From the sequence record LC765218.1: a DNA stretch of 64,000 nucleotides, one strand, 5' to 3'. Under the pieces are notes generated by a model. The model saw only the letters and a program-made list of their open reading frames with translations. It was not told where the DNA came from and did no database searches. Positions 8,486 to 50,128 of the stretch are shown here, piece by piece. The stretch's first letter is position 1. The number at the start of each line of letters is the position of its first letter. This stretch comes from Pseudomonas phage BRkr. The translations under genes were made by a program, and so were the position numbers.

Positions 8486-8980
8486 ATGAGTAGCTATACT
8501 AAGTTTAATGCCAAGATGTCTATCCAGTATGACGATGATGCATCTGTTATTCTGGGTGATGACTACTGGCGGATTATGGAGACCTTTCAATACGACATTG
8601 GAAGTGAAGGCTCTGGTAAATACGCAGTTGTTAATAAATGTTTCCTAACAGATGGTGCATCTATTCCACGGCCAGTACGTTGGTTGATCCCTCGATTAGG
8701 TAAGCATGGTCAGGCAGCAGCGTTGCATGATAAGCTTTGTGAGACATACACTATCTTCCAGATGGTAGATGGGAAAGAGACAGAAGTTAAGGTAACTCGA
8801 AAAGAGATAGACCATATCTTCTATGAGGCGCTAAAAGTATCTAAGGTTAATCCAATTATCCGTGGTTTGATTCGTGCAGGTGTGGATAGCTACCGAATTG
8901 TTACACGTCCCTCTAAACCGAATGTTAAGAAAGAGAAACGTCGACTTGAACAACAATGTTCTTTAGGTCAAAGAGCTTAA
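8486..8980 (+). CDS. DUF1353-like protein
   Basis: TDGASIPR motif, characteristic of DUF1353 as recalled from memory. Basic C-terminus. Confidence 0.5.
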   Translation: MSSYTKFNAKMSIQYDDDASVILGDDYWRIMETFQYDIGSEGSGKYAVVNKCFLTDGASIPRPVRWLIPRLGKHGQAAALHDKLCETYTIFQMVDGKETEVKVTRKEIDHIFYEALKVSKVNPIIRGLIRAGVDSYRIVTRPSKPNVKKEKRRLEQQCSLGQRA

Positions 8981-8983
8981 CGG

Positions 8984-9016
8984 CATAAAGCCTTCCCCAA
9001 CGGGAAGGCTTTTATG
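8984..9016. terminator. bidirectional intrinsic terminator hairpin
   Basis: AGCCTTCCC-caac-GGGAAGGCT then TTTATG, with CATAAAG on the left, between convergent genes ending at 8980 and 9024. Confidence 0.55.
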
Positions 9017-9023
9017 TTGTCAC

Positions 9024-11210
9024 TTACCGTCCATAGAATCCAAGTGAATTGAAACTACGTTCTTGTTGGAAACGAGAAGTACGGACACGTCTAACACGAT
9101 CATCACGTACTTGTTTCAACATGGCGTCGATACCAACACCGGTTGTTTCTTCCATGTTAATACTCTTCGAAAGATTACGAAGACGCATCTCAAGCTTGGT
9201 AATTACGAATGGATTTGTCTCACCTTTTAGCTGAGCAATCAAGTCCTCGAACTCACCTTTGTTTTGCTTCTCTTTATCTTCACGATATTTTTCCAGAGCA
9301 GTTAACTCTACGTCACGAGTAACAGCACGGGAGAAAATTGTTGCTGGATTAATACCGTAATAAGAAAGGTTCTGTCCACGAATACATACCCAGTGCGCCA
9401 ACAGCATGGAAATTACCATGTCGTCGTGATTATCACGAGTGTGGTCAATTCGCCCATTCTTAATTGTCAAAGCAAGTAGTTCTGTAATCAGCGTCTTATC
9501 CGCCATTCTCCGGCTACCGTAATCCATTGAACTCGGTAATGCTTCAAGGAACAGGCTGTTACGAGAATACCGACCGGAACCTGAGGTGTTGAAACCAAAG
9601 TAACGTTTGAATCGATCATAGAACGAAGCAGGTCGTTGAGACAACGGAGTCTGAATATCACGGAACTCAGATTCTAGTACCGTGTGTTCATCTACGATTC
9701 TATTAAAGATTCGGCGGAACGGATCTATCCCAGCTTTATGCAGTTGCATTACAACGAAGTCAATGAGAGCAGTGCCCATCGATTTACGTTCAGGTACCCA
9801 TGTAATCGTCGGATAACGAATTAATAGATTACCGACGAATGCAGCAATAACAGGAACAGAGGTTTCATTATAACAACCAGCTGCTACTACTTCGTGTGTC
9901 TCCACATCGAATATAACCATACCAGTGGCGTCATTACCCGATCCTAAAAGTTCACTTGGGTCCATGCCCATCATAAAGCGACCTTCAGCCATTCTCTGGT
10001 CAACTTCATGTTTAGGGATATACCAGCGAATGGTGTAACCGTCTGGCGTGATCTCGGTCCAAATTGGTTCACGTTCAGATGATTTTAGCTGCTTCTTATG
10101 TTCGGGTGATAATGGAGAACCTTCACCACCAACAGTCCAGATATTGAAGAAGTCTCGGTCAGCGATCTCGCCAAAAGAACTAGACTCTTTAAGTTCCTGG
10201 AACAACCATTCATCTGTACGACCTAACTGCCTATGGTTAAAAGCTCCGTAGATGATAGGTTTCTGATCAGCCTTGGATCCTTTCTCCATTACCAACACTG
10301 CCATACGTTGGTTCACTAGATCGAACATTGTTTCAGACCAGGTATGTCCACCTGTCATGAACTTGTAAGCAAATGCTCCATCGCGAGTGGTAATGTTGCC
10401 AGCAGTTGTTGTAAAGATGTTTCCGTATGGTTGACCTTGACGCTTGGCTTCGGCACGGGCGGCTGAACCAGAGGCCAGGGCTACAGGAAGAGAGATCTCA
10501 ATCAAGTTAATATACGCAAATTCGTCGAACTGCATGATAGGTACTGTAAGACCACGACCAAGTTTGTCGGCAGCAATCTTATCGTTACGACCAACTGCGG
10601 TCTTATAACGGTTACCTAAACGAATACACGTCATCAGCTCGTTATTGTCCACGTCATTTGGATTAGCCCAGTGAATGTAATCAGGTAATAGATCTCGCAT
10701 TACCTTTAGACGTTCAATGTTCGCTGTTCGAAGTTTATTATCTTTAGTGATCAGGTTGATCGTGGTGTTCTCACCCCAGATATACATCATACCCGTCATC
10801 AAGATGTCAGTTGAAACCGATTTACCAGTCTGTCGTGGTTGTAACAGACCAAAGTCTAAGTGGTTAAAGAAGCACCAGAAAAGTGCAATGTTACCACGGT
10901 TAGCGCGGAAAGGGTTTGGGACGTTACCAGATGTCGCTGGGACACGGGCAACTTCACGGAAGTAATACCAAGGATTGTATTTACACTCCAAGGCAATCTT
11001 CATTTTTGTAGCATCGTCTAGATCTGGATCATAGGGATCTACTCCCTGAAGATCAGGCTGGAGTAATGCTAAAATGAATTTCCAGTTTGCTATTTTAAGC
11101 TCATCTCTATAAAGAGCTGCTAATTTTAAGAATGTTTTATTTGACGTTTTTGTATCCGCTATTGCTGTTGGGAACTTCTCCCAATCATCGCGGAATAAAA
11201 TAAGTTCCAT
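9024..11210 (-). CDS. terL: terminase large subunit
   Basis: 728 aa. Walker-A-like LLQPRQTGKSVS, ATPase coupling motif, and an RNase-H-like nuclease region (DHTRDNHDDMVISMLLAHW). Position relative to sheath and tube matches phiKZ-like layout. AAGGAAACGGTC Shine-Dalgarno before the ATG. Confidence 0.8.
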   Translation of the reverse strand: MELILFRDDWEKFPTAIADTKTSNKTFLKLAALYRDELKIANWKFILALLQPDLQGVDPYDPDLDDATKMKIALECKYNPWYYFREVARVPATSGNVPNPFRANRGNIALFWCFFNHLDFGLLQPRQTGKSVSTDILMTGMMYIWGENTTINLITKDNKLRTANIERLKVMRDLLPDYIHWANPNDVDNNELMTCIRLGNRYKTAVGRNDKIAADKLGRGLTVPIMQFDEFAYINLIEISLPVALASGSAARAEAKRQGQPYGNIFTTTAGNITTRDGAFAYKFMTGGHTWSETMFDLVNQRMAVLVMEKGSKADQKPIIYGAFNHRQLGRTDEWLFQELKESSSFGEIADRDFFNIWTVGGEGSPLSPEHKKQLKSSEREPIWTEITPDGYTIRWYIPKHEVDQRMAEGRFMMGMDPSELLGSGNDATGMVIFDVETHEVVAAGCYNETSVPVIAAFVGNLLIRYPTITWVPERKSMGTALIDFVVMQLHKAGIDPFRRIFNRIVDEHTVLESEFRDIQTPLSQRPASFYDRFKRYFGFNTSGSGRYSRNSLFLEALPSSMDYGSRRMADKTLITELLALTIKNGRIDHTRDNHDDMVISMLLAHWVCIRGQNLSYYGINPATIFSRAVTRDVELTALEKYREDKEKQNKGEFEDLIAQLKGETNPFVITKLEMRLRNLSKSINMEETTGVGIDAMLKQVRDDRVRRVRTSRFQQERSFNSLGFYGR

Positions 11211-17454: not shown

Positions 17455-19548
17455 ATGTCCACGTACTACAACGCTGTTCCTAAGGTTGTGTTTAACGGGA
17501 TTCGAGATCGTAGCCGTCGGGCGTTCATTCGTCCCGAGATTACTTTCGCCCAACACACTCCTCTGCTTCGTCTCTTCACTGAGACTGGCCCAACTGAAAC
17601 CACTTATGTAGGTGATTCCGAAGATGGCTTCGCGTCTATCTTTGGTCAAAGCTCTCTTGATCCACGCAGCAAGTATTTTAACCAGCAATCGCTGCTGGCG
17701 CTGAACCTGCTTGGTCAAGGTAACGGTTTCTATGTTAAACGCCTGAAACCCGAAGACGCTGGTAACCCTGCTCGAATCACTGTGGCCCTGGAAATGGTCC
17801 AAGACATGATTCCTGCTTCTGTGACCCGTCTCAGTGGCTTTAACTATCCTGATGCTGTAACTGACACTGGTAACGGTCCGATTGCTTCTGGTACCGATAC
17901 TGTTGAAGGTTATCGTGCACGCATCGTTCTGATTGCTGATAACCAATCCGAAGTGGGTACTCAACGGCGCCTGCCGGGTACCATGGTCTCCGGTATGGAC
18001 GGTAGTCAGTCCACTGTATATCCGCTGTTCGAACTACCCGCTTCGTTCTTCGGTCAGCCCGGTAATAACCTGGGCATGCGTATCTGGGCACCGACTCAGC
18101 TCGATCCGGATGGCTACGATGAATTCACCGGCCAGCGCTTCAAGACTCGTCTGTATCGTGTTCAATTCGTTGAACTCATGGACGGGACAAGCACTCCGAT
18201 CATCATCAAGACCAAGACCGATGAAGACTACGTCAACGTATCGTTCGACGAAGGTGTTTGGTCGGAACAGTATGATCGTGATCTAACCATCGATGAAGTT
18301 CTTATCGATCAGTATAACGACGACGGTATTGAGTCGGGTATGTCCCCGCTTTATAGCCCGTTCTCGCAGTGCTATGTATATCGTGACAACGTAGAACTCG
18401 TTCGCGAGATTATCTACGATGCAGAGACCCGTGTAAACCCGGCAATCAATGCACATATCGATGCACCTGGTCAGATTGACTTCCTCACTATGCTTGGTGA
18501 AGATGGTGACCCGTATCAATCCATCAAACTGGAAGGTCCGATTGAAGGTGGTGTGCTTCTAGGTAAGAACGCTACTGTCTACGCCCAAGGCGGTAAAGAC
18601 GGTACCACTACCCTGGATGAATACGTCAAGCTTGTTGACATCGAGAATACCAACTTTGGTAAGCTTGGTGATCAGTACGAAAACGTTGCGCTCTATCAAT
18701 TCGGTATCCTGTACGACACCGGTCTGCCGATGGCCTCGAAATATAAGGCAATGCAAGTATTGTCTGCTCGTCGTGACGTACAGTACTTCTTCACTACCTT
18801 TGTTGAAGGTGAGACCCGTCTTCCGACGGCATCTGAAGAAGTATCCCGTGTACAGGCTCTGATGACTCGTCTGAAGGCTTTCCCGGAAGCTACCCTGTAT
18901 GGTACCCCTGTGTGCCGTGCGATGATTGTAATGCAATCTGGTAAGCTTGTTGGCGGCGGTTACAATAAGTTTGTTCCGCAGTTGCTCGACGTTGCCATGA
19001 TGTGGTCGCGTTATGCTGGTGCTGGCACCGGTATCCTACGTGCAGGCGCTGAAATGGACGTTGATCCGAATAACCGTGTAACCATGGTTAAGAAGCTTAA
19101 CGTACCGTTCTTCAATGCTCGTACATCGGCTAACCTCTGGGCCAATGGTGCAACTTACTCTACTTCGTACGACCATCGTTCGAATTACTACCCGTGTCTG
19201 CGTTCGGTATATCTGGACGACACATCGGTACTGCTTAGCCCGATCACTGTGAATATCTGCTGCGTAATCATGCGGTTGATCCACAAGATCCATGCTAAGT
19301 TCTCGGGTAACGCTTTCCTGACTAAAGAACAGCTTGTTGAACGTTGCGACCAAGAGATCCTTGATCGTACTCGTGATCTGTTTGGTGGTCGTGTAGACGT
19401 GATCCCGCGTACCGAGATCACCGGTATTGATGAGAACAATGGCACCAGCTGGACTTGCACTGTGACTGTTGCGGCTAATAACCCGCGCACCACTCTGAAC
19501 TTCCAACTGGAAACCGTTCGCCGCGAGAACGTTACCGAGCAGCAATAA
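17455..19548 (+). CDS. tail sheath protein (phiKZ gp29-like)
   Basis: 697 aa, close to the 695 aa I recall for the phiKZ sheath (from memory), and followed directly by a tube-sized gene. Strongly host-like G/C-ending codon usage implies very high expression. Assignment rests on size, order and expression, so it is moderate. Confidence 0.55.
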
Positions 19549-19580
19549 GCTCGGTAACTACTCATTTTTGAGGAATCGAA

Positions 19581-20456
19581 ATGAAACGTTATAATGACCC
19601 GATGGCTCCTCAGTCCGGCTACGGTGCAGGTGGTTCCAAGAACACCATCAACCTGGCTCAGGCTGGTACGGATGTCTTTCGTCCTGATCTGGCTAACCTT
19701 GCGAGTAACACTCCTTACGTTAGCCGGAACCTCGTCCCGTTCCTTCTGGAAGCTCCACGCTTCTTCCAATACGCTAGCAATAGCCGGCAACTAGTTCGTT
19801 CGCTTAAAGCCCTGGTAGAGAACCATGTTCGTACTATCGATGGTCTACAGCAGACTGTAACTGTTGATACCGCAGAAGCTCCTTGGGGTGGTTCTGGTGA
19901 AGCCATCCAGGCTGCCACCAACGTTACCCGTGCTCGTTCGACTCCGTCGTTGGGTTGCTGGGAACTGCAAGGTCGTGCTATCCAGCGTTACCTGAAATGG
20001 TGGATCACCTACGGTATCGGTGACGAGAATACCAAGATCCCGCGTATCGTTGCAGAAGGTAACGTTCCGCCGGAGAAATACGATGCTACCTTCTACGGTG
20101 CCACGATTCTATTCGTTGAACCAGACCCGACTTTCCAAGACGTTGTTAGCGCATATCTCTGCACCAACATGTTCCCGCTGTCGACTGGTCAATGGGAGAG
20201 CCGTAAAGACGCCGCACAGATCGGCCAGAACCTTGACCTCAGTATTGAGTTCTCGGCGATGACTGACGTATCTGAAGGTGTTACCATGTATGCTCGTCAA
20301 CTGTTCCGTACACTGAACATTAAAGGGATGAACCCGAACGAACAACGTGGTTGGATTGAATCCATCTCTGCTGACGTACGTGCCGCCAACATTGGTCTGC
20401 GTGATCAGCTGGAGAAATCCGCTACTAACCGTGTAACCTACGATGGTGCTGACTAA
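19581..20456 (+). CDS. tail tube protein (phiKZ gp30-like)
   Basis: 291 aa, immediately downstream of the sheath gene, same optimised codon usage. Confidence 0.45.
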
Positions 20457-20668
20457 TGGCTAATCCCCTTAAGCTAGATGATGCTTCGACGCAAACTCCC
20501 GCTCAAGGGGGTTCCGTTGAAAGGTACAACGATTTGATCTCTGCTGATGTCGCTGCTGAAGATAATGGTCTTTGGCACCGTATTAATCGAGTAGCTGCTT
20601 CTGTAGCTACCGATGCAGATAACATCGCTCGTGGTTTACCCGTAGAAGCAAACGCACAGTACGCTTGA
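20456..20668 (+). CDS. hypothetical protein (70 aa)
   Basis: TAATG overlap with the tube gene stop, so it is translationally coupled. Confidence 0.4.
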   Translation: MANPLKLDDASTQTPAQGGSVERYNDLISADVAAEDNGLWHRINRVAASVATDADNIARGLPVEANAQYA

Positions 20669-20672
20669 TATA

Positions 20673-20700
20673 TGGCCCAGCTTCGGCTGGGCTTTATGTC
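20673..20700 (+). terminator. intrinsic terminator
   Basis: GCCCAGC-TTCG-GCTGGGC then TTTATGTCG. Confidence 0.55.
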
Positions 20701-20710
20701 GGCTTGTATT

Positions 20711-21714: not shown

Positions 21715-21929
21715 TGATCGCTTTCGGTTTAGCTAGTCTGTTCTTTATTGCAATGATTTTAAATATCGGATATCTCTATTCGACAAAGCAATATGAACAT
21801 GAAAAGCTAGCTAGGTGTGACTCAGTTACATTGAAACGATCTAAGTGGTGGATACGCGTATTCAAAGGCGGGAGAAATACATTACTCGCTTTGTTCGTTG
21901 TAATCCTGGCAGACCACTTATTCAAGTAA
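21714..21929 (+). CDS. hypothetical membrane protein (71 aa, two hydrophobic segments)
   Basis: TAATG overlap. Hydrophobic helices FGLASLFFIAMILNIGYL and LLALFVVILA. Confidence 0.4.
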   Translation: MIAFGLASLFFIAMILNIGYLYSTKQYEHEKLARCDSVTLKRSKWWIRVFKGGRNTLLALFVVILADHLFK

Positions 21930-21933
21930 CACG

Positions 21934-21968
21934 ACATAAGCCCTCTCCTTCGGGAGAGGGCATTTATG
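21934..21968. terminator. bidirectional intrinsic terminator
   Basis: GCCCTCTCC-TTCG-GGAGAGGGC flanked by CATAAG and TTTATG, between convergent genes ending at 21929 and 21980. Confidence 0.6.
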
Positions 21969-21979
21969 TTTTTTTTTCT

Positions 21980-26668: not shown

Positions 26669-26974
26669 ATGGCAACACAATTTGAAGTTACCTTGGAAGA
26701 AATAAAAGCCGAACTAGGTACCCCTCTAGAAATCGTTCCAATGGTCCTACATAAGCTTTTTCAACTTCCCTATGACTTACCCTATCCAAGTAAGATTCTC
26801 TTCGAAGAACAACGTCTGGAGAGCAATAAACCACGTCTACTGATCCGTAATAAAGATAGTATCGTAATCGGTATCGCTTTAGAACCTACAGTTGACAAAG
26901 CCTCTATCTTAACTTACATTAAGAAGGCTGCTCCCACAATAATGGATCTTCGTCCATGGGTTGAACGCGAGTAA
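26669..26974 (+). CDS. hypothetical protein (101 aa)
   Basis: Complete ORF. Confidence 0.45.
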   Translation: MATQFEVTLEEIKAELGTPLEIVPMVLHKLFQLPYDLPYPSKILFEEQRLESNKPRLLIRNKDSIVIGIALEPTVDKASILTYIKKAAPTIMDLRPWVERE

Positions 26975-26979
26975 TATAA

Positions 26980-27008
26980 ACGCCTCCCTTCGGGGAGGCT
27001 TTATGTTG
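26980..27008 (+). terminator. intrinsic terminator
   Basis: GCCTCCC-TTCG-GGGAGGC then TTTATGTTG. Confidence 0.55.
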
Positions 27009-27014
27009 TATTTG

Positions 27015-27032
27015 TTTTTAAATCTATATTAC
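27015..27032 (+). promoter_or_regulatory. early-promoter-like element TTTTTAAATCTATATTAC
   Basis: Member of the ATCTATATTAC family, 35 nt upstream of the ATG at 27067. Confidence 0.5.
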
Positions 27033-27066: not shown

Positions 27067-27852
27067 ATGAGCAATATTGATTTTAGTTTTAACGCAAAAG
27101 AATTAGGGCTCACCAAAAACCATCTAGACACCATCTGGTTCGATATTACAGGTAATGGCGCCTTGGATGCGTACAACATCCGTGTACAGGTGGAAAGCCA
27201 CAGTGGTTGGAGTAAACCAACTGTCACGTTCGAAGGACGAGATCGTTCTTACTTGAACGTACGTGGATTGAATTCTTCTTTCAATGAGGAATCGTACGTT
27301 GCCCATGTTAAGTCTTTGTTGCGTGACGTTTACATTGAAAAATGTGGGTGGATCGAACAACGTATTCAACGTGCGTATCGTGATGTAGTAGATGAGTTCT
27401 CTGACCGTGGCTTCTTGTCTAATACTACTGGTGTGTACCAGGTGATTACAGACGCCTCTGATAAACCGGTTAATTTCCAGATCATGGGTTTGGTATCGTC
27501 CTATGTATTTGGTGATCTCGATGAAGAGACTGATTCTATTCGTAAACTGGAAAACAATAATGTCTTACATTATCCGCAATGGGTTCGTCCAGAGGTTCTG
27601 CGTTTTGCGGAGGTAGCTAAACGACGGCTTGAATGGTTGACTGGTAGCAAGGGTGTCAAATCGTTCGTACACGTAATGAAAAACGATGCGAATGAATACA
27701 CCCGTTCTGTTGTTATCGCAGTTGATGATGTCGAAAGTATCTATCATGGAGTTGCAGTTGGATTCATGATGCATCCTATCCGTTACTTTGATATGGATAG
27801 GCTGGCTTGGGATCCTAAGTTTGTCTCCATGATCAAGCTTAGTAATCGTTAA
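27067..27852 (+). CDS. hypothetical protein (261 aa)
   Basis: Complete ORF. Confidence 0.5.
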   Translation: MSNIDFSFNAKELGLTKNHLDTIWFDITGNGALDAYNIRVQVESHSGWSKPTVTFEGRDRSYLNVRGLNSSFNEESYVAHVKSLLRDVYIEKCGWIEQRIQRAYRDVVDEFSDRGFLSNTTGVYQVITDASDKPVNFQIMGLVSSYVFGDLDEETDSIRKLENNNVLHYPQWVRPEVLRFAEVAKRRLEWLTGSKGVKSFVHVMKNDANEYTRSVVIAVDDVESIYHGVAVGFMMHPIRYFDMDRLAWDPKFVSMIKLSNR

Positions 27853-27854
27853 GG

Positions 27855-27900
27855 CATAAAGCCCTCTCCTTCGGGAGAGGGTTATTCCACTTTATTTTTT
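27855..27900 (+). terminator. intrinsic terminator with T8 run
   Basis: GCCCTCTCC-TTCG-GGAGAGGG then ttattccactttatttttttt. Confidence 0.55.
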
Positions 27901-28160
27901 TCGCGGGGCCGGCCGCGCATAAGTAACTTGTTGTTAAAGAATAGATATCTTTAATAAAGAGTATTTTCCTTATTAAATGCTTTTTCTTTAAAAGAAATTT
28001 TATATAAATAGTAATTATATGTGGGGGGGACCCTTTGGGGGGGTCCCATATATAATTTCCTTATTCTTTAGTACGGGGTAGGGAAACAAAAACGACTATG
28101 TCGCAAAACTTGGAAGAGGGTGTCGTGGGGCTACAAAGCCCCATCCACCCAGTAGTAAAA

Positions 28161-28181
28161 ATTATTTCAAATCTATATTAC
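28161..28181 (+). promoter_or_regulatory. early-promoter-like element ATTATTTCAAATCTATATTAC
   Basis: TTTCAAATCTATAT subclass, shared with the elements at 35931 and 45951. Confidence 0.5.
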
Positions 28182-28220
28182 TTAGTTGAATATTAACTCG
28201 TAAAACTGGAAAAACCGAAA

Positions 28221-28442
28221 ATGAAAACATTGCTCCCTGATTCTTTGTTCTTGGTTAACAACGACGAAGACGTCCATGAGTTGATCAAACAGATGTACAT
28301 TAAGTTCAAAGTCGACATGGTCTCCCCTAAGACGATTCTCTGTTCTTATCCGTCAGTGATAATGGCAACGGTTAGTAAAGAGTATCAATCTCCAACGACC
28401 CTGATTATTCGTGTGGTACCCATTTCTGAAATTCTAACCTGA
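28221..28442 (+). CDS. hypothetical protein (73 aa)
   Basis: First ORF after the promoter element. Confidence 0.4.
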   Translation: MKTLLPDSLFLVNNDEDVHELIKQMYIKFKVDMVSPKTILCSYPSVIMATVSKEYQSPTTLIIRVVPISEILT

Positions 28443-28581: not shown

Positions 28582-29342
28582 AATCTATTGGCGAAGCACT
28601 TCCAGCCATCAAAGATATCTTCAAGAACTTCCTGGTTATTGAAAACGTAGATGAAATCACCTTTGGTGCAGTTAACCCAGTTACCAACGATATCTTTCTG
28701 AAAGTATCGGAATGGAACGTAACACAGGAAGACTTCGAACTGACTTACAAACCTAGTGAGACAAATATTGAAATCACTAAACAGAATCTAGGTTCGTTCT
28801 TCAGTGTAATTGGTCAACGTAATACAGTTCATCAATTGGGAGAACATTATCAGAAGCTTATTGAACTGATGATTGCTGAAGGATATAAATTCTTCGATGT
28901 CCAAAGTTCTTGGAGCTTCGATACCGGTGTTCATTCGGTTAGTTATTATAAACCCAGTGAGTGGATCAAACAGGAAATCGGTCGTATTACTTTCTACAGT
29001 AATGATCGAGTATATCAGCTTCTAGTTCCTGAGAATACGTCATCTGCGATTAAACATGTCGAAGTTGATGAATACTGTCGTCCAAAGACAATCACGTTCT
29101 TGGATCTGAATACACTGAAGGTTAGTGAACGACACGAGTTTGACTTCGAGTCAATTCCGAAGATTTATCGGATAACGCCGACAATCAGGAATTTTGCTAA
29201 TCTGGATAGTGTATCCATTGTTAACACCATGGTTCACGATAACTGTACGGTAACCTTGATGGTAGGTTACTATCTTGGAGTCGATGTTCAGGTTAAAGTC
29301 TATCTCAATTCGTTCAAAGACCAAGAGCTAGTTCTTAGCTAA
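28578..29342 (+). CDS. hypothetical protein (254 aa)
   Basis: Complete ORF upstream of PhuZ. Confidence 0.5.
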   Translation: MKSIGEALPAIKDIFKNFLVIENVDEITFGAVNPVTNDIFLKVSEWNVTQEDFELTYKPSETNIEITKQNLGSFFSVIGQRNTVHQLGEHYQKLIELMIAEGYKFFDVQSSWSFDTGVHSVSYYKPSEWIKQEIGRITFYSNDRVYQLLVPENTSSAIKHVEVDEYCRPKTITFLDLNTLKVSERHEFDFESIPKIYRITPTIRNFANLDSVSIVNTMVHDNCTVTLMVGYYLGVDVQVKVYLNSFKDQELVLS

Positions 29343-29488
29343 CAAATACCGGAGTTACGGTTAATATGTGTGACAATGGAGCGTTTGATAGTATTCATTT
29401 TGGGATGAACAGCAAGACTGTGCTCAATGAACAAGAACGCGACACGCTAGTTACAATTCAAGAAGGTTAATCAAGAGGAAACGTGGAA

Positions 29489-30436
29489 ATGACTAAAGTA
29501 AAAACTCGTGTATACTGCTGTGGTGGTGCTGGTCTGAATATTGGTGTAAACCTTCAATGGCATCCGGATCTGGTATACATTGACACCTGCGATAAGAACG
29601 TAAGTTCTAGTCATGATATCGATCGTGTCTTTTTGACCGAGGGTACTCGTGGGGCAGGTAAGAACCGTGCATTCATCATGCCTAAGGTTCGCCATCAGAT
29701 TGCACCTTTCCTTGAACGATATCCAGCTGGCGATTTCAATATCGTCCTGTTTTCTATGGGCGGTGGTTCTGGTTCTGTTCTTGGTCCGCTGATTGTATCG
29801 GCTCTGGCTAAAGCTGGTGAAACTGTAATTCCGGTCGTTGTCAGTGGTATTGAATCTACTGAGGTTCTGCAAAACGATATCGATACCATGAAGACTCTGG
29901 AAGGTATCGCTGCTGCAACCAACACCCCGATCAACATCTGTCCGATCGAAAACGTGAACGGCGTTCCGTATTCCGAAATCGACAAAGATGCGGTATTTGC
30001 TGTCCATGCTCTGATTTACCTGTCTAATCAGAAACATGAACGTCTCGATGTACTTGATCTGGATCACTGGGCACGCTTCACTAGTAAGCATAGTTACATC
30101 CAACCGCAACTGTGTGAACTGCATATCCATACTTCTCGTCAAGAAGCAGCTTCTGTCCCTGAGATGATTTCTGTCGCATCCCTGTACACAGATGCTTCCA
30201 AAGAAGTAGCTTATGGTAATCCGTTTGTTCGGACTGTGGGTATCGCATCCCCTGACGACGAAGACGCTCTGTCTGAGCAACTGCACTTCGTTATCAACTC
30301 GGTTGGTATCCAAGAGCGGATTAAGTCTCTCCTGGATCAAAAACAGGAACATCATCGTCAGCAAGTTCGTTACACCCAACGTGCTGCGATCGTTGATATC
30401 GATGACAACCGTTCTGATGATGGTTTCGTCCTCTAA
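29489..30436 (+). CDS. phuZ: phage tubulin PhuZ (FtsZ/tubulin-like GTPase)
   Basis: N-terminal nucleotide-binding VYCCGGAGLNIG and the tubulin signature loop SMGGGSGSVLGPL (GGGTGSG-like). About 315 aa, as I recall for the 201phi2-1 PhuZ (from memory). Acidic C-terminal tail DIDDNRSDDGFVL, resembling the acidic tail used for filament contacts. Alternative GTG start at 29483. Confidence 0.8.
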   Translation: MTKVKTRVYCCGGAGLNIGVNLQWHPDLVYIDTCDKNVSSSHDIDRVFLTEGTRGAGKNRAFIMPKVRHQIAPFLERYPAGDFNIVLFSMGGGSGSVLGPLIVSALAKAGETVIPVVVSGIESTEVLQNDIDTMKTLEGIAAATNTPINICPIENVNGVPYSEIDKDAVFAVHALIYLSNQKHERLDVLDLDHWARFTSKHSYIQPQLCELHIHTSRQEAASVPEMISVASLYTDASKEVAYGNPFVRTVGIASPDDEDALSEQLHFVINSVGIQERIKSLLDQKQEHHRQQVRYTQRAAIVDIDDNRSDDGFVL

Positions 30437-30441
30437 ATAAC

Positions 30442-30467
30442 TGGGGAGCTTCGGCTCCCCTTTTATT
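30442..30467 (+). terminator. intrinsic terminator
   Basis: GGGGAGC-TTCG-GCTCCCC then TTTTATT, directly after phuZ. Confidence 0.55.
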
Positions 30468-30482
30468 CCGTCTGGAGGTTTC

Positions 30483-30725
30483 ATGAGTTGGATCTTAGCT
30501 ACCATTGTCTCTACAGGAGCTATTGGCGAATTACCTGTAGTTAAAGAAGAAGAAGTTTCTGTGTCTTCCATTGAGGTGTGTAGAGCCATCATCGACCAAC
30601 ACAGTTCTTTGTATACCCGGAATAATTGGAATATCAGTTACCACCGTGGCGATAACAGTGAACTCCACGTTATAAACATGAATCGAACGACAAAGATTAT
30701 ATTTGTTTGTAAGGAGAAGAAATGA
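30483..30725 (+). CDS. hypothetical protein (80 aa)
   Basis: Small ORF. Confidence 0.35.
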   Translation: MSWILATIVSTGAIGELPVVKEEEVSVSSIEVCRAIIDQHSSLYTRNNWNISYHRGDNSELHVINMNRTTKIIFVCKEKK

Positions 30726-31144
30726 TAAAGCTTACACCGGAACGTCTTATCAAACTGGCCGTTGATTGCACTGAAGTATTGATGCGAACTGTGGCACAGA
30801 ATGACCGTATTACCATTGGTGAACTCGCTATTAACTGCGACGTCTGTAATAACACAATGCGCAGTGCATTGAAAGCTTTGCTCTCTGACTCCGAGACAAG
30901 GGCTGCACTCCAAGTACTGTTTTATTATATCCAAGCAGAGGATACTTTCTACAAACAGGAAGATCTACCGGACGATGAGTTTATTCAAGCTCTGAGTGGA
31001 ACTGACCTTTATCAAAGGGATATAATGGACAGTGCCCGCATTTGGGCTACGTATGCCAGGCGCGATGCTATTGAAATGCATGAACATCGTAAAGCCGTAG
31101 GTGAACGAGCTATAGAACGTTATCAAGGTTATATGAAGCCTTAA
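30722..31144 (+). CDS. hypothetical protein (140 aa)
   Basis: ATGA overlap with the upstream stop. Confidence 0.45.
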   Translation: MIKLTPERLIKLAVDCTEVLMRTVAQNDRITIGELAINCDVCNNTMRSALKALLSDSETRAALQVLFYYIQAEDTFYKQEDLPDDEFIQALSGTDLYQRDIMDSARIWATYARRDAIEMHEHRKAVGERAIERYQGYMKP

Positions 31145-31220
31145 TAACCGTCCAATCTTTTGTATCAATTAACAACAGTAAGGAATCAATAATGAAACCT
31201 GATTAAACCTCTAAGGAGGA

Positions 31221-31718
31221 ATGATGGCTAAGACAGCAGCGAAAAAGCTCGATGAGCTAATGGCAGCTGAGCTTAACCTCGAACTCTCCAATTACACAGC
31301 GATGTTACACCATGCCGTCACCTTAGTCGGCGTTCTTGAAGGCTTTGTGTTTGTATATGACAAGAATGGAGTCACATGTTACGACAAAGTTGATGCGTGG
31401 TCTGAAGTCAATGGAATGCGTTTGAGGATAGCTCGGTTCCAGTCTAATCCAATGGTCGAGGATAGGCTTGCTAAAAGGATTTACAAACGTTGGTATGTTC
31501 ATGGGGGTGGAATGTTAATTCCATTGAACATTACTAAAGTAGATGACCTAAAAGAAAATTTCTATTTCAAGATTGATGACAACCCCGGTCATTGTACATT
31601 CACCATTTTTACAGAGGATGCTCCGTTTATACGTAGTAAGCCATTGTTATTTAACAGAAAGAGTCATCCCGGATGGGGTGTAACATTAACCGAAACATGT
31701 AAAGAAAAAGTGGCATAA
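31221..31718 (+). CDS. hypothetical protein (165 aa)
   Basis: Strong AAGGAGG Shine-Dalgarno. Tandem ATG at 31221 and 31224. Confidence 0.5.
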   Translation: MMAKTAAKKLDELMAAELNLELSNYTAMLHHAVTLVGVLEGFVFVYDKNGVTCYDKVDAWSEVNGMRLRIARFQSNPMVEDRLAKRIYKRWYVHGGGMLIPLNITKVDDLKENFYFKIDDNPGHCTFTIFTEDAPFIRSKPLLFNRKSHPGWGVTLTETCKEKVA

Positions 31719-31748
31719 ATGCTCTCCCTTAGATGGGAGAGCTTATGT
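31718..31748 (+). terminator. intrinsic terminator
   Basis: GCTCTCCC-ttagat-GGGAGAGC then TTATGTCC. Confidence 0.5.
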
Positions 31749-31763
31749 CCATGGGAGATAGAA

Positions 31764-32330
31764 ATGTTTAACGATATAGCTACCCTGATCCAGATCTGGA
31801 GACTTCTCGGCCGTCAGCGTTCTGCATGTATCGACCCTAATACCAAACGGCATGTTCAATTGTGGTATGCGCCAAATAAAAATTCTATCCTGATGCAAGG
31901 GACGGATCCAAATAAGCGGTTGTGTCCCGATGTTATATTTGAACTTGATCCTCTCTCGAAACGGCTTGATCGTATCAACTGTCTTTGGGCTGAAGATCAG
32001 GATAGTGCCCATGAGTTAATTTATAACACTCTCCAATTTATCGTTCATCGATCGTTTGAAAAGACAGTCGTAGATCGGGTGTCTAAACTTCCACGTCAAG
32101 CGTGGAATGATAGCGTGCATAATAACCTAGAGTTCTACAGTTCTCCTATCGACAAAGATATACTGTGGATCCGTCACACTGCCGCCAGATGGCGTCAATG
32201 GCCCGTAGAGGTCAATCTTTCAGAAAAGACCGTGACGTTTGATTACTCTACTGAAGAACCTATCCCTACCCGTGCTGGTATCATGCTAGCAATTGAAGCG
32301 ATGGAGAAAGTTAATGCAAAGTCCAAATGA
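31764..32330 (+). CDS. hypothetical protein (188 aa)
   Basis: ATG after GGGAGATAGAA. The track ORF would begin inside the terminator hairpin. Confidence 0.5.
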   Translation: MFNDIATLIQIWRLLGRQRSACIDPNTKRHVQLWYAPNKNSILMQGTDPNKRLCPDVIFELDPLSKRLDRINCLWAEDQDSAHELIYNTLQFIVHRSFEKTVVDRVSKLPRQAWNDSVHNNLEFYSSPIDKDILWIRHTAARWRQWPVEVNLSEKTVTFDYSTEEPIPTRAGIMLAIEAMEKVNAKSK

Positions 32331-32592
32331 GCAACTCAAAGAAATGATCCGAGAATGGATCGAACTTGAACTCGATGAAACCTGCGTAGCTGGTGATAGC
32401 TATACTCGTCTTGCTGTCAAAAAGAAGGGTAATGTAATTACCTTTTCTAGTCGTAGTCGCGGACATACAAAGGAATATCTCACCGCCACTTTGACGGGCG
32501 ATGAAATTGAACTCTCGTCTACGCAAGGTGAAGTCCGCCAGTGGATCAGTACGGCACAGTTTTGTATTGGAAAGACACTCCAAAACTACTGA
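32314..32592 (+). CDS. hypothetical protein (92 aa)
   Basis: ATG preceded by GGAGAAAG. Overlaps the upstream stop. Confidence 0.4.
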   Translation: MQSPNEQLKEMIREWIELELDETCVAGDSYTRLAVKKKGNVITFSSRSRGHTKEYLTATLTGDEIELSSTQGEVRQWISTAQFCIGKTLQNY

Positions 32593-33047
32593 TATGTAAT
32601 CACTATAGAGTACTTAGCATGTCGCAACGTGAACACATCATCGAGATCATGAAAACTTGGGCTACTACCAATAAGTGCCCACCTGAAGAAATGGCCCTAG
32701 GTCATCTCAGTGCAATGGTTATTTACAATCTGCGTAAAGAAGTGAATACCATTGATATCTTTCTGACACCTGCTCAATACAATCGCTGGATTGAAGCTGG
32801 TAACGAAGAGACAGAAGACGATCAAGGTAAGTTCATTGTCTTCTATGATTTCACCCGTTTGCGCAAAATGACAAAGGAGCAACAAGGACAACTTGTTAAT
32901 AGTTACGAGGTCCAAGTTCTCCATCCCCTTCACCTGAAAGAAACGTTTGAAGCCCTTGAGAAGATAGAATCGAGAGACCCTAAAGTACGAGCTAAGGATC
33001 ATCGTGCTGTACAAGATCTCGATGTATTCCTTAGACGTTATTGGTGA
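32541..33047 (+). CDS. hypothetical protein (168 aa; alternative start at 32616 gives 143 aa)
   Basis: The ORF overlaps the upstream gene by 52 nt, so the start is uncertain. Confidence 0.4.
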   Translation: MDQYGTVLYWKDTPKLLICNHYRVLSMSQREHIIEIMKTWATTNKCPPEEMALGHLSAMVIYNLRKEVNTIDIFLTPAQYNRWIEAGNEETEDDQGKFIVFYDFTRLRKMTKEQQGQLVNSYEVQVLHPLHLKETFEALEKIESRDPKVRAKDHRAVQDLDVFLRRYW

Positions 33048-33806: not shown

Positions 33807-34037
33807 ATGCAAGCTTTCTTTGATAAGGTCCAAGCTGAAGCCAAACGTGTTGTCGAAACTAATCCTCAGGGCCGTTGGACTTATGGGGATTGGGATGTCT
33901 TCGTTCAGGAAGATAAAGTCATCATTAATGATAGTAATCTAGAGCTTGTTGCTGAAGCATCGGCATCGAAACCTGATTTGGTTTGCATGAAATGTGATCC
34001 TGATGACGTTCTGGAATGCTTGGAGCGTTTGTCATAA
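33807..34037 (+). CDS. hypothetical protein (76 aa)
   Basis: ATG 8 nt after AAGGAG. Confidence 0.45.
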   Translation: MQAFFDKVQAEAKRVVETNPQGRWTYGDWDVFVQEDKVIINDSNLELVAEASASKPDLVCMKCDPDDVLECLERLS

Positions 34038-34040
34038 TGG

Positions 34041-34092
34041 CATAAAGCCCCTACCTTCGGGTAGGGGCTATGCTTATTTTTTTTTTATTTTA
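34041..34092. terminator. bidirectional intrinsic terminator
   Basis: GCCCCTACC-TTCG-GGTAGGGGC, flanked by CATAAAG and TATGCTTATTTTTTTTTTTATTTT. The same 22-nt stem-loop recurs at 44821. Confidence 0.6.
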
Positions 34093-40796: not shown

Positions 40797-42947
40797 ATGA
40801 ACCAGTGCAGTATGCCTAACCCGTTCATTCTCCCGGTCGATGAATATGCCCGTGACTTGAACATCATTGAAGGATACCTCAATGATCAGGCTCTTTATAT
40901 CTCGGCAATGACGGGAGATGATTTTGAAACCTGTCTGGAGTTTGTAAAAGAACAATCTCGTCCTCAAGGTCAATTTGCCTTGAATAATCCAAAAACCCTG
41001 GTGGTTGATAAAAACCCCCATGGTGACCGTAGTCTTAAAGAAACCACTTTTATGGGTTTTCTTGGACGCGTAAAAAAACAGAATCTTTTGCTGTCGCCGA
41101 GTATGACTGTGTATCTCCCAGAATCACAGCGACAGTCTACACACTCGCAGTATATTGCTGAAGGTGTTGCTAACCGTAAACGTGTAAAGAAAGAACAAAT
41201 GCGGCTGGAAGGTGAAGGTACTCCTGAAGCAGCAGAACTTGCCCAGGTTCGTAAAGGCGAACAAGAGAACTTCAAAATTAACAATAACTCCTATAGTGGA
41301 GCAACCGTATCAGCTGCAACAATTCTGTATTACAAGTCGACTCACTCCAGTTTGACATCGACCTGCCGTACAGCAACCTCGTATGCTAACGCTAACAACG
41401 AGAAGTTCATCACCGGTAACCGTCACTATTATAGTCCGGAAATCACCAAGGCTAATCTTCTGTCGATTGCTAACAACACCGACATGAAGAAGCTGAAAGA
41501 TTGCATCGAACATTTCAACATGCACTATCCGACTCCGGAAGAAGTGGTTGAGATGGTTCTGTATTCGACTGCGCACTATTGGCAGAACCGTGACTACACC
41601 GAACAGATTCGGATGTTGGTTACTGGCTTCACACCACTACAACGTGCTGCTGTTATGTACGTAGGTGATCTGTATCATACTTACAAACATAACAAAACTT
41701 TGATTCGCGGTTTCCTGACTGAGCTTGCTAAAGTAGGTACCGATGAACAAAAGGTTACCAAAGAAGTTTACAACACTTACGATGGTGACCTCCAACTGTT
41801 GGCTAACTTCATCTGCTTTGACTTGGTTAAAGGTCGTAACTACGACAAGCTGAGTAAAGAGTCTCCTGAAGTATTCGACAAGATCTATGCAACAGGTAAG
41901 AACATCTCTGATACGCTGTGGAAATACAAGCGTCTTATTGATGCACTATTGCTGACCAAGAACGTTCCTTCCAGCATTCATGCTTTCCCAACTGCTTATC
42001 GTCGTGCAGCTGTTATTTCCGATACAGACTCGACCATGTTCACGATGCAGTATTGGGTAGAAGAGTTCTTTGGTAAGATCACTTTCACTGACGAAGCCAA
42101 GCGTCTAGTGTTTGCGTTGGTATTCTTGGTGTCGTGTGTTGTAGCACACATTCTAGCGATTCAATCGGCTAACATGGGCGTATCGAAAGAGAAGCTCCGC
42201 CTGCTCGCTATGAAGAACGAATATTACTTCGCGGTACTTTCCCTGACCACACGTTCAAAACACTATTACGCGTCTCAAGATGCACAAGAGGGTGTTATGT
42301 TTGCTAAAGCACGTATGGAAGTTAAAGGTGTCGGCCTTCGAGATTCTAAAGTTCCACCGAAGATTAACAAGACCGCTAAGCGAATGATGGATGATATTAT
42401 TAAATCCATTAAAGCTGAAACACCTTTAGATCTACCAGCAATGTTGAAAGAAGTAGCAGATCTGGAAAGAGACATTATCGCATCTGTACGTTCTGGTAAA
42501 GCTGAATATCTTACCACTGGTAAGTGTAAGAAAATAGATGCATACAAATCTGAAGATAATGCCACTTATGCCAAACATACTTTCTGGAAAGAAGTATGCA
42601 GTCCATCCTTTGGTGAGATTGAAGAACCACCTTATAGTTTCGTAAAGATTTCTGTAACGGTGGACAACAGAACCCGTTTTAACGAATGGGTTGAATCCAT
42701 CGAAGATAAAGGCTTGGCCATGCGTCTAAAACGCTGGGCTATGGAAAATAAGAAGACTGGTATTACCAACTTCCATGTTCCAATGTCTGTTGTAGAAAAC
42801 CGTGGTATCCCAGATGAGATCACACGTGTAGCGGATGTTCGTACGATCATCTCCAACACGATGGGTGTCTTCTATCTGATCTTTGAATCTTTGGGTATCT
42901 TCCTGATCGATAAAGGTAACACTCGTTTGATTTCCGATTTCTATTAA
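40797..42947 (+). CDS. large hypothetical protein (716 aa) with polymerase-like motifs (NSYSG and VISDTDS)
   Basis: KINNNSYSGA resembles family-B motif B (K-x3-NS-x-YG). AAVISDTDSTMF resembles motif C (YGDTDS). The order is consistent with a divergent or split DNA-polymerase palm. This is tentative, and no motif A was seen. Confidence 0.55.
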   Translation: MNQCSMPNPFILPVDEYARDLNIIEGYLNDQALYISAMTGDDFETCLEFVKEQSRPQGQFALNNPKTLVVDKNPHGDRSLKETTFMGFLGRVKKQNLLLSPSMTVYLPESQRQSTHSQYIAEGVANRKRVKKEQMRLEGEGTPEAAELAQVRKGEQENFKINNNSYSGATVSAATILYYKSTHSSLTSTCRTATSYANANNEKFITGNRHYYSPEITKANLLSIANNTDMKKLKDCIEHFNMHYPTPEEVVEMVLYSTAHYWQNRDYTEQIRMLVTGFTPLQRAAVMYVGDLYHTYKHNKTLIRGFLTELAKVGTDEQKVTKEVYNTYDGDLQLLANFICFDLVKGRNYDKLSKESPEVFDKIYATGKNISDTLWKYKRLIDALLLTKNVPSSIHAFPTAYRRAAVISDTDSTMFTMQYWVEEFFGKITFTDEAKRLVFALVFLVSCVVAHILAIQSANMGVSKEKLRLLAMKNEYYFAVLSLTTRSKHYYASQDAQEGVMFAKARMEVKGVGLRDSKVPPKINKTAKRMMDDIIKSIKAETPLDLPAMLKEVADLERDIIASVRSGKAEYLTTGKCKKIDAYKSEDNATYAKHTFWKEVCSPSFGEIEEPPYSFVKISVTVDNRTRFNEWVESIEDKGLAMRLKRWAMENKKTGITNFHVPMSVVENRGIPDEITRVADVRTIISNTMGVFYLIFESLGIFLIDKGNTRLISDFY

Positions 42948-44388: not shown

Positions 44389-44811
44389 ATGATCCATAAC
44401 CCAAAAGTTCATGGTCCACTACTCAGGGTTAAGAGTCATTACAATTTATCTTCTAATGACTTCGTTGTGACTGGTATGGCTGCACTAGCTGTATCAGTTA
44501 GACGGCAGATCGACCCACAACACATCTCTATTTCGATAAAGAAAGATGTATGGGATAAGCTGATCGCTAAGTACCCTAACCTAAAAGCCGAAACTGTAAA
44601 GAACAGTATTCGTAATCAGCGTTACATTCGTTTGTTGTCGGATGTATATGCTGAGTGTGAAGACGTTCCATCTAAAGATATCAATTGGTATTCTGGTTAT
44701 CAGTTCCTCAAGGCTAATGTACTGAAGAAAGAACTGATCGGTCTTCGCGCTGAGGCAACTAAGAAGAAGAATCAAGAGTTCTACGATAAACTCTTGGAAC
44801 AATTCAAATAA
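44389..44811 (+). CDS. hypothetical protein (140 aa)
   Basis: Complete ORF. Confidence 0.5.
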   Translation: MIHNPKVHGPLLRVKSHYNLSSNDFVVTGMAALAVSVRRQIDPQHISISIKKDVWDKLIAKYPNLKAETVKNSIRNQRYIRLLSDVYAECEDVPSKDINWYSGYQFLKANVLKKELIGLRAEATKKKNQEFYDKLLEQFK

Positions 44812-44812
44812 C

Positions 44813-44860
44813 GACATAAAGCCCCTACCTTCGGGTAGGGGCTGTTTATTATGTTTTTTT
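44813..44860. terminator. bidirectional intrinsic terminator (same stem as at 34047)
   Basis: GCCCCTACC-TTCG-GGTAGGGGC flanked by CATAAAG and TGTTTATTATGTTTTTTT, between convergent ends at 44811 and 44849. Confidence 0.6.
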
Positions 44861-49797: not shown

Positions 49798-50128
49798 GAA
49801 ACAACTCCCCCGGTTGATAGGGGTGTCAGAAGGCTGGCATCCCGATTCAAATACTGCGACCCTGGTTCACTTCGGTGATAACGGTTAGGAGTAGGTTCCG
49901 CGAAGTAATCGACTAGTGGGCGTAAAGTCTAGGTCGACCTCTCGCTACACGGGCCGTGAGTGATCACTTAACCGAAAGGAGTTACTCTTGGGTAACGTGT
50001 GATCAAACAACGATGGATGGTAAAAGGTCCTAGTGCCAGAGTGCTACAGAGAAGAGCGGAGGTTAAGCTTTGTAGACGACGCTAGGATCGTGCCAGGCTC
50101 CGTTGGTGGTCCATCGATAGTAGATAAG

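Follow-up and report, generated by a model that had tools for sequence, protein, structure and literature searches.

The 64,000 nt stretch of the Pseudomonas phage BRkr genome analysed here (record LC765218.1; hereafter the window) contains, shortly upstream of the PhuZ tubulin gene, a small element that may well be a conserved, cis-acting structured phage RNA without an Rfam family. Its conserved part, the module (approximately 27902-28085, with a core at 27999-28073), has about an even chance, judged from sequence comparison, of being a cis-encoded structured RNA that lies between cistrons on the plus strand, in mRNA running toward PhuZ. A preliminary description of the window, made from the sequence alone, had put forward a candidate structured RNA in this gap, and this is upheld by compensatory covariation, an asymmetry in G.U pairs favouring the plus strand, extreme conservation and the sense transcription of the homologue in phage phiKZ. 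The window phage is a phiKZ-like, nucleus-forming Pseudomonas jumbo phage of the PA1C/PS119XW type: its nearest relatives, at ~99% identity, are the P. aeruginosa jumbo phages PA1C, PS119XW, phiLBG22, phiHQ and HHBS36_1, and HPP-Temi, filed as Pawinskivirus in its record, is 79% identical to the window.

The core occurs once per genome, always on the same strand and a few genes upstream of PhuZ, in phiKZ, phiPA3, HPP-Temi, Psa21, D6, RVTF4, 201phi2-1, uncultivated relatives and, weakly, Noxifer. As a BLAST query, the 76 nt core found exactly one match per genome in at least 50 Pseudomonas jumbo-phage records, and a covariance model returned a single plus strand match 1-3 kb upstream of PhuZ in 12 PhuZ-anchored loci, which include uncultivated relatives from IMG/VR. 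Identity among carriers is ~90-100% over the core, and a 120 nt version of it retains ~81% identity in phiKZ, phiPA3 and Psa21 (BLAST). The window and phiKZ share ~90% nucleotide identity across 69 nt of the core; their PhuZ proteins are 38% identical, and between the proteins flanking the element in these two phages no homology is detectable. Similarly, when compared with HPP-Temi, the gap alone is 90% identical (BLAST) against 79% for the surrounding 2.4 kb, with identity reaching its maximum of 0.98 in 28000-28099 against 0.60-0.78 in the flanking coding regions. Since PhuZ has diverged to this extent, the flanking proteins are unrelated and identity peaks at the module itself, the module appears to be autonomous and more strongly constrained than its neighbours. 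Poor conservation and transcriptional silence, which the preliminary description had named among the outcomes counting against a functional element, are the opposite of what the evidence indicates.

Composition and stability on their own do little to set the feature apart, as two or more matches to a loose pattern for its paired G runs were present in 8 of 100 shuffled sequences, and hairpins of comparable stability are frequent elsewhere in the window; it stands above chance because it is conserved across genera. From the sequences searched, the element seems restricted to the phiKZ-like genera of Pseudomonas phages. Seven more distant PhuZ loci yielded no convincing match near PhuZ to a second covariance model, and a metagenome pattern scan was dominated by chance AT-rich matches, yielding one confirmed copy on a contig already in the viral collection. 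A tie to Dip (gp37, the product of the upstream gene in phiKZ) was considered and rejected, as the upstream open reading frame (ORF) in the window is not a Dip homologue; likewise, the window's downstream ORF is not homologous to phiKZ gp38. A second peak of identity to HPP-Temi was observed at 29000-29399 (92-98%, against 60-85% in adjacent coding DNA), spanning the 3' end of a 254 amino acid (aa) ORF and the 128 bp gap before PhuZ.

The module comprises the following features.

27902-27927, plus strand: GC-rich box (hairpin CGCGG-GGCCGG-CCGCG at 27902-27917) followed by CATAAGTAAC; the left edge of the module
27948-27960, plus strand: H1 hairpin, TCTTT-AAT-AAAGA
27965-27974, plus strand: first copy of the repeat TTTCCTTATT, the second copy being inside the 3' box
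27983-27997, plus strand: H2, an AT-rich hairpin, TTTCTT-TAA-AAGAAA
28004-28015, plus strand: 5' box, ATAAATAGTAAT, with no other exact copy in the window
28013-28057, plus strand: main bulged hairpin, identified through covariation and folding
28018-28021, plus strand: TATG in the 5' arm of the main hairpin, the phiKZ late-promoter consensus, the G of which is the wobble or mismatch position
28023-28047, plus strand: G7 pair, GGGGGGGACCC-TTT-GGGGGGGTCCC
28058-28073, plus strand: 3' box, TCCTTATTCTTTAGTA, which holds the second repeat copy and is unique in the window when up to three mismatches are allowed
28057-28085, plus strand: P2, a G.U-rich pairing of TTCCTTATTCT with GGGGTAGGGAA predicted by RNAfold; in this phage, the right edge of the module lies here

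The main hairpin consists of an outer AU-rich stem (AATTATATGT/ATATATAATT), in which a G.U pair is conserved, together with a bulge of unpaired G and a top rich in GC, which can be drawn either as GGGACCC/GGGTCCC or as GGG/CCC plus CCC/GGG. It comprises 13 + 3 bp (or 10 + 7 bp), with a possible 5 bp extension, includes 4-6 compensatory pairs and has a minimum free energy (MFE) of -21.3 kcal/mol. The ATAT symmetry remarked upon in the preliminary description is genuine, and corresponds to the outer 10 bp of this 45 nt structure. When RNAalifold was applied to a plain MAFFT alignment of 15 homologues, a procedure independent of the fitted covariance model, the main hairpin alone was predicted, with 11 pairs of which four were compensatory. 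In the model-fitted alignment, 93% of cells were paired, compared with 35-60% when partners were slid, and six pairs had changed on both sides. The sequence of the outer stem differs between lineages: the window has AATTATAT/ATATAATT, phiKZ ATATTAT/ATAATAT, Psa21 AATAGTAT/ATACTATT and Noxifer TTTATAGGGG/CCCCTATAAA. The 201phi2-1-like phages keep the stem, with tandem G.A replacing the U-A and G.U pairs beside a differing GC top. TATG occupies the same position in 13 of the 15 homologues, the exceptions being locus L021, which has TGTG with a compensating change, and Noxifer, which has TATAG.

The same alignments distinguish the two strands. There are at least 14 G.U cells, against at most four unresolved non-standard cells that are possibly A.C, those being in poorly aligned rows; the plus strand fold is more stable than that of the minus strand by 3-7 kcal/mol in all 15 homologues, and the unpaired extra G residues are always found in the 5' arm. 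Because of these G.U pairs, the bias in stability and the position of the extra G residues, the active form is therefore the plus strand as a single strand, whether as RNA or as displaced DNA.

The G7 pair, a feature that the preliminary description had pointed out, lies at 28023-28047 and contains the sole runs of seven or more G in the 64 kb (28023-28029 and 28037-28043), beside which there is one G6 and no C6. Across the phiKZ, phiPA3, HPP-Temi, Psa21, RVTF4 and D6 lineages, it varies only in its first G run, which is 6, 7 or 9 long, while the 201phi2-1-like and Noxifer lineages have a different G-rich/C-rich sequence in its place. These differences in run length shift every reading frame, and no open frame on either strand is shared across the homologues. 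A small peptide (MWGGPFGGVPY... on the plus strand or MGPPQRVPP... on the minus strand) was rejected on the same grounds, as the G run lengths break the frames and leave no common ORF. The 'hypothetical proteins' annotated across the element are mutually inconsistent: on the minus strand, 4952-5050 in PA1C (locus L001), 3150-3308 in phiPA3 (L004), 4840-4974 and 5102-5389 in HPP-Temi (L002) and 2973-3095 in D6 (L009). Judging from these sequences, the small ORFs annotated in these four phages are probably annotation artefacts, and not genes. The element does not belong to a known RNA family either: a search of the whole window with Rfam 15 at the gathering threshold returned two tRNAs and no match at the element, and in a sensitive scan of 27800-28300 all hits had E values above 0.5, far under gathering scores. 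The tRNA genes are a tandem tRNA-Pro(TGG) and tRNA-Leu(TAA) pair at 648-815 on the minus strand.

The sequences surrounding the main hairpin include both invariant boxes and further covarying stems. The 5' box is near-invariant in 13 of 15 homologues, being AAAGAG in L021 and AAAGAT in Noxifer, and the 3' box is the most invariant primary sequence in all clades, Noxifer included. Neither appears to be a recurrent promoter motif, as both are unique in the window. AAUAG in the 5' box and UUAUU in the 3' box are pairable in 96% of cells, which would lengthen the hairpin to ~70 nt. The stem of H1 covaries, from CTTT/AAAG in the window to CTCC-GATA-GGAG in phiPA3 and RVTF4 and ACTTC-GATA/GACA-GAAGT in Psa21 and D6, while among L012-L014 GATAAA-loop-TTTATC becomes AGTAAA-loop-TTTACT; RNAalifold assigned it three pairs, two of them changed on both sides. 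H2 has five pairs in the consensus fold of nine relatives, one of them changed on both sides, and an equivalent AT-rich hairpin is seen in other clades. A hairpin in the place of P2 likewise covaries, being AGUAUAGC-GUAA-GCUAUGCU in 201phi2-1, GUGUAGAC-UAU-GUCUGCAC in L014 and CUUAGC-UUUA-GCUAAG in phiPA3, and in two relatives its loop is of the GNRA type (GUAA, GUGA). The exact 10-mer TTTCCTTATT has two copies in 64 kb, both within the module, and is degenerate in phiKZ, phiPA3 and HPP-Temi.

At the left edge, CGCGG-GGCCGG-CCGCG was located as previously described, and the 8 bp palindrome within it (GGCCGGCC, 27907-27914) is unique in the window. The palindrome is not a conserved feature, since relatives keep the GC-rich box alone: HPP-Temi and L012-L014 have a GC-rich stretch with (C)ATAAGTAAT after it, an arrangement that is degenerate in Psa21, 201phi2-1, RVTF4 and D6. 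A divergent minus strand TATG at this box was discarded as a candidate because it is not conserved among the homologues. Just 3' of the 3' box, runs of 9-10 C were seen in D6 (L009, ~3075-3083), Noxifer (L007, ~3070-3080) and two uncultivated relatives (L017, ~7002-7011; L018, ~7000-7008); an alternative fold could result if these paired with the main hairpin's G runs.

The transcriptional context of the element is available from phiKZ, for which RNA pooled from 5-80 min after infection has been analysed by ONT-cappable-seq (supplement to Putzeys et al., bioRxiv 10.1101/2023.10.13.562163, published as PMC10914365). The phiKZ homologue lies at 31131-31248, between PHIKZ037 and PHIKZ038, with the G of its TATG at 31202. 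Around this locus, transcription start sites (TSSs) were mapped at 27710, 29413 (early promoter P017), 30150 and 33472, and transcription termination sites (TTSs) at 29374 and 32943; transcription unit TU024 (29413-32943) spans PHIKZ036, PHIKZ037 (Dip), PHIKZ038 and PHIKZ039 (PhuZ) and is supported by full-length reads (Putzeys et al. supplement). These reads cross the element, and neither a TSS nor a TTS was mapped inside 31131-31248, although 149 TSSs, 66 of them late-type, were detected in phiKZ with RNA up to 80 min (Putzeys et al.). Because TU024 covers the element without an internal start or stop, the phiKZ module is part of an early polycistronic mRNA, in the sense orientation, with no detectable promoter or terminator of its own. 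No phiKZ non-coding RNA candidate at 31.1-31.3 kb is listed in the portion of Table S7 that runs to 108843, and this stretch also lacks the mapped TTS that a candidate of that sort would require; the Grad-seq candidates are at PHIKZ298 and p40 rather than at the element.

Taken as an intercistronic RNA, the module would begin with H1 and H2, which precede a long irregular hairpin with an AU-rich lower stem, a fixed non-Watson-Crick position, a G bulge and a GC-rich top. This hairpin would bring the invariant boxes AUAAAUAGU and UCCUUAUUCUU(U)AGU side by side, producing a platform that a conserved protein or ribonuclease, as yet putative, may recognise. Such a partner might then decide what becomes of the polycistronic mRNA where its upstream cistrons meet the PhuZ-proximal ones, through endonucleolytic processing, protection of the flanking RNA or control of the translation of the next cistron. 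We infer that the RNA rather than the DNA is active, and the partner and the outcome proposed here are to be read in the same conditional sense.

The closest mechanistic analogue would be the RNase III hairpins located between the early genes of coliphage T7 (R0.3, R1.1 and others), which affect mRNA stability and downstream translation. Like them, the module is a conserved, irregular hairpin of at least ~20 bp, with an internal loop or bulge, that is intercistronic in an early polycistronic mRNA. Unlike the T7 sites, of which there are several, the module is single-copy, and its loops, bulge and boxes are conserved in sequence beyond the needs of RNase III; furthermore, no cleavage is known at the module, and RNA from the phage nucleus may escape the host RNase III. 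A second comparison is with sRNA005, a conserved small RNA derived from the 5' untranslated region upstream of phiKZ gp182 and 201phi2-1 gp277 (PMC11512511), which, like the module, is non-coding, conserved across jumbo-phage genera and syntenic, lying a short way upstream of a gene. In the gp182 leader, too, there is a GC hairpin with UUCCUUAUU after it. Unlike the module, the gp182 RNA has its own TSS and premature TTS, and it is of a different sequence at a different locus; the covariance model finds no match in the gp182 region. In locus L155 (20049-20103), the gp182 leader was seen as a hairpin and then GGTTCCTTATTTTG, and the leader RNA of PHIKZ_p15 (42692-42806), listed in that same portion of Putzeys Table S7, carries GTATTTTCCTTATT, identical to 27961-27974 of the window. 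UUCCUUAUU may be a shared leader motif similar to the 3' tail of 16S rRNA. The 14-mer common to the window and the phiKZ leader RNA is frequent by chance in IMG/VR, and is therefore a lead only.

A number of observations weigh against an intercistronic role for the RNA. In the window, HPP-Temi and phiPA3, the module is located between a strong terminator, T1 (detailed below), and the next early promoter; boxed in this way, it is dispensable for either flanking gene and transcribed by read-through only, yet it is 90-98% conserved. This arrangement fits an autonomous role, as a separate RNA or a DNA site, at least as well. Terminators in phiKZ are leaky, with reads from P016 passing T015 (Putzeys et al. 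supplement). The conservation, extending to loops and bulge, exceeds the needs of known RNase III or stabiliser hairpins, and the element has no known processing site, protein partner or phenotype. The pairing between the two boxes is without covariation, its positions being invariant and the counts neutral on pairing, and the upstream hairpins, as almost perfect palindromes that show no strand asymmetry, are uninformative as to whether RNA or DNA is involved. The transcript data are from phiKZ only, and RNAs shorter than ~80 nt can be missed by them. No description of the element was found in the literature searched, which did not extend to Ceyssens et al. 2014 or to the supplements of Wicke et al. 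2021 and of the 201phi2-1 paper.

R-loop origins, such as those involving ColE1 RNA II, T4 oriF and oriG, and the mitochondrial light-strand promoter and conserved sequence block II (LSP-CSBII), suggest a different explanation, which is rather unlikely: that the element is a transcript-primed replication origin. An RNA-DNA hybrid over the G-rich non-template tract would be trimmed by RNase H1 into a primer for the phage DNA polymerase, with H1 and H2 acting as an AT-rich unwinding region, the displaced plus strand folding into the hairpin and the template strand being C-rich. As in such origins, transcription passes over a single-copy tract, G-rich on the non-template strand, beside easily melted AT-rich DNA: in phiKZ, sense transcription crosses the element, and the tract (G7...G7) is on the non-template plus strand. 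An origin would also be consistent with the module's fixed position as a single copy, the AT-rich palindromic region adjoining a GC clamp, a G-rich strand asymmetry found in all clades despite their differing sequence, and the conservation of the module in the window despite the terminator and the promoter that insulate it; single-stranded DNA, moreover, tolerates G.T pairs. Phages of the phiKZ group are without DnaG-type or archaeo-eukaryotic primases and all have RNase H1 (PMC7824862), and multisubunit RNA polymerases may prime replication, as proposed by Iyer et al. (PMC7824862); no origin is described in the reviews searched. Against this, GC skew shows no inflection at the element, its local minimum at ~22-24 kb corresponding to a divergent gene switch ~5 kb away; there are no iterons, AGTAAT-like repeats being inconsistently conserved; and compensatory changes and GNRA-loop hairpins are more typical of RNA. 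Unlike R-loop origins, the module has no mapped replication start and, in phiKZ, no dedicated promoter was detected, and its compensatory changes indicate a folded single strand rather than hybrid stability alone. A packaging (pac) site, or another protein-bound DNA site such as a nick or recombination site read as a hairpin with flanking boxes, would similarly account for the single copy, for conserved boxes flanking a palindrome and for strand-specific mismatches, which could fit a site recognised as a hairpin of single-stranded DNA. This is very unlikely, given that the element is far from the terminase genes, with none among its annotated neighbours, that the starts of GenBank records are not convincingly clustered there, and that the covariation pattern is better suited to RNA.

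Other alternatives would place the element among transcriptional signals. Coliphage N4 has three copies of a hairpin promoter for its virion RNA polymerase, each with a 5-7 bp stem and a 3 nt loop, and the module resembles these in being a strand-specific hairpin with conserved bases and thus a potential recognition element for a phage RNA polymerase; unlike the N4 case, the polymerases are unrelated and no initiation is observed at the module. It is quite improbable that the element is a late promoter with a leader, whereby the non-virion RNA polymerase would start at the TATG G (28021) and the transcript's 5' end, folded as GGGACCC/GGGUCCC, would lead into the PhuZ-side genes. Late promoters of phiKZ require TATG, the G being +1 (PMC4666361), and the module has TATG, with its G as a potential +1, and an AT-rich upstream region in common with, for example, P119L (PMC4666361, PMC12809450). 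The position of TATG is shared by 13 of 15 homologues, the G is the only conserved non-Watson-Crick position, and 81-88 nt separate this G from the following start codon in the Psa21, D6, RVTF4, 201phi2-1, L011 and L013 lineages, although their next genes differ. Nevertheless, no TSS was mapped at phiKZ 31202, or anywhere between 30150 and 33472; TATG is lost in L021 (to TGTG, with the pair kept by compensation) and in Noxifer, and with 434 occurrences in the window it carries little information. The 5' arm would lie upstream of such a start, leaving its covariation unexplained, and P119L, unlike the module, has no hairpin or G run, while the module has no mapped TSS and its TATG is not universal. 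A specialised intrinsic terminator or attenuator, with the hairpin and U-rich 3' box ending or metering transcription into the PhuZ-side genes, has a very small probability. The AU-rich outer stem, GC-rich top and U-rich tail parallel the phage's own terminator family, a simple scan marks 28036-28048 as terminator-like, and phiKZ, Psa21 and 201phi2-1 have no other terminator between the upstream gene and the element. The GC-rich hairpin is present, and its tail, AUUUCCUUAUUCUUU, is U-rich with no clean U run. Against this reading, no phiKZ TTS was mapped between 29374 and 32943, where full-length reads cross; in two clades the next gene follows 30-45 nt past the 3' box, too little space for a new promoter; and the ordinary terminators of the window are multi-copy, with another sequence motif. 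Finally, the chance that a G-quadruplex is the functional form is slight in the extreme. The four G3 tracts with 1-7-1 loops that had been pointed out are present (G3-G-G3-ACCCTTT-G3-G-G3, 28023-28043), the motif is invariant in six lineages, and folding predictions for the isolated 21-mer G core favour a quadruplex (-12.6 kcal/mol, against -5.2 for a hairpin). In context, however, the hairpin wins at -21.3 kcal/mol, the MFE fold with quadruplexes allowed containing none, and as a conserved property the quadruplex fails, because the 201phi2-1-like phages, L021 and Noxifer lack the four-tract arrangement and keep the hairpin.

The gap in which the module is found was correctly identified as the longest ORF-free stretch in the window, this being true at ORF thresholds of 40, 60 and 100 aa, although it starts at 27853 and not 27887. 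It extends from 27853 to 28220, its length being 368 bp if an ORF must have 60 aa or more and 340 bp if 40 aa suffice. Rather than a single 330 bp element, as had been supposed, the gap is in three parts: an ordinary terminator tail (27861-27901), the conserved module (~27902-28085), and a clade-specific hairpin with an early promoter (28118-28181), the right third, promoter included, being limited to the window, HPP-Temi and phiPA3 and belonging to an inserted early-gene cassette. The features and genes flanking the module are listed below.

27067-27852: 261 aa ORF, the left neighbour of the gap
27861-27901, plus strand: T1, an intrinsic terminator that ends the early-gene cassette upstream and lies outside the conserved module
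28118-28150, plus strand: P3, hairpin GGGTG..GTGGGGCT-ACAA-AGCCCCAT..CACCC, clade-specific and outside the module
28174-28181, plus strand: early (virion RNA polymerase) promoter core TATATTAC, predicted from the sequence to serve the 73 aa ORF
28221-28442: 73 aa ORF, the right neighbour of the gap
29483-30436: PhuZ tubulin gene

T1 consists of a stem-loop, GCCCTCTCC-TTCG-GGAGAGGGT, at 27861-27882 and a T7 tail at 27895-27901; the T run in the preliminary description is thus present, as seven T rather than eight, and represents the U-tail of the upstream terminator. T1 is a member of a multi-copy family of the form (G/A)CATAAAGCC-stem-GGCTTTATG found throughout the window, and in related genomes a query with the full gap matched 8-11 places each, against one for the core query. 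To the right, the further G clusters (GGGGTAGGG at 28075 and GGGTGTCGTGGGG at 28118) and the hairpin GGGGCT-ACAA-AGCCCC (28127-28142) were found as described. P3 and the two extra G clusters are limited to the window, HPP-Temi and phiPA3, with P3 covarying (GGGACT-CCA-AGTCCC in phiPA3). The early-promoter element mentioned there, TATATTAC, is at 28174-28181, its extended context being shared with five other plus strand copies. In total there are eight copies of TATATTAC in the window against 2.35 expected, of which six plus strand sites have an AAATC/AGATC context (20728, 23277, 27025, 28174, 33530 and 57313). The core is identical in the previously validated phiKZ early promoter P017 (Putzeys et al., bioRxiv 10.1101/2023.10.13.562163), and the site at 28174-28181 is predicted to be such a promoter from its AT-rich context and the ribosome-binding site (RBS) ~25-40 nt on. 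In the Psa21-like and 201phi2-1-like phages, the RBS of the next gene is just 30-45 nt past the conserved core.

Because a member of the terminator family lies on the left, a promoter on the right, and the clade-specific material is absent elsewhere, the lineage of the window appears to have gained promoter-gene-terminator early cassettes by insertion to either side of a module that is older. These early cassettes resemble the mobile promoter/stem-loop cassettes of T4-type phages. The early-promoter sites and the terminator family frame small early-gene cassettes flanking the conserved module. The family can be written more fully as (G/A)CATAAAGCC-stem-TTCG-stem-GGCTTTATGT, with examples at 8976-9025, 20656-20705, 21926-21975, 26966-27015, 34026-34075 and 44811-44860; its 3' arm includes TTATG, and hence the late-promoter consensus TATG, which suggests that terminator and late-promoter modules may be coupled in the window. 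In phiKZ, late promoter P016 is directly downstream of terminator T014 (Putzeys et al. supplement). Elsewhere in the window, GC-rich islands were observed at 18001-20000 (0.505), 48001-50000 (0.549) and 60001-62000 (0.500), against a background of 0.41-0.43.

Chimalliviruses are models for the phage nucleus and candidates for therapy. Their cis-acting sequences are, to our knowledge, barely characterised, with no origin, no packaging site and few RNA candidates. Purifying selection on the module exceeds that on the neighbouring tubulin gene in at least six genera, and the module has persisted while the genes flanking it were replaced; so strong a selection implies that its function is important to the phage. 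One consequence is a correction to annotation, in that, for PA1C, phiPA3, HPP-Temi and D6, the small proteins placed across the element almost certainly do not correspond to genes. As a small, single-copy element with a stem that designed mutations can disrupt and rebuild, it is testable with Cas13-based phage engineering. Should it act as RNA, the phage RNA motif that it represents is new, and so, probably, is an RNA-protein interaction. Should it act as DNA, it may reveal how phages without a primase start replication: were it the replication origin of phiKZ-like nucleus-forming phages, with an R-loop turned into a primer by RNase H1, which is an unlikely outcome, this would explain how they replicate without a recognisable primase.

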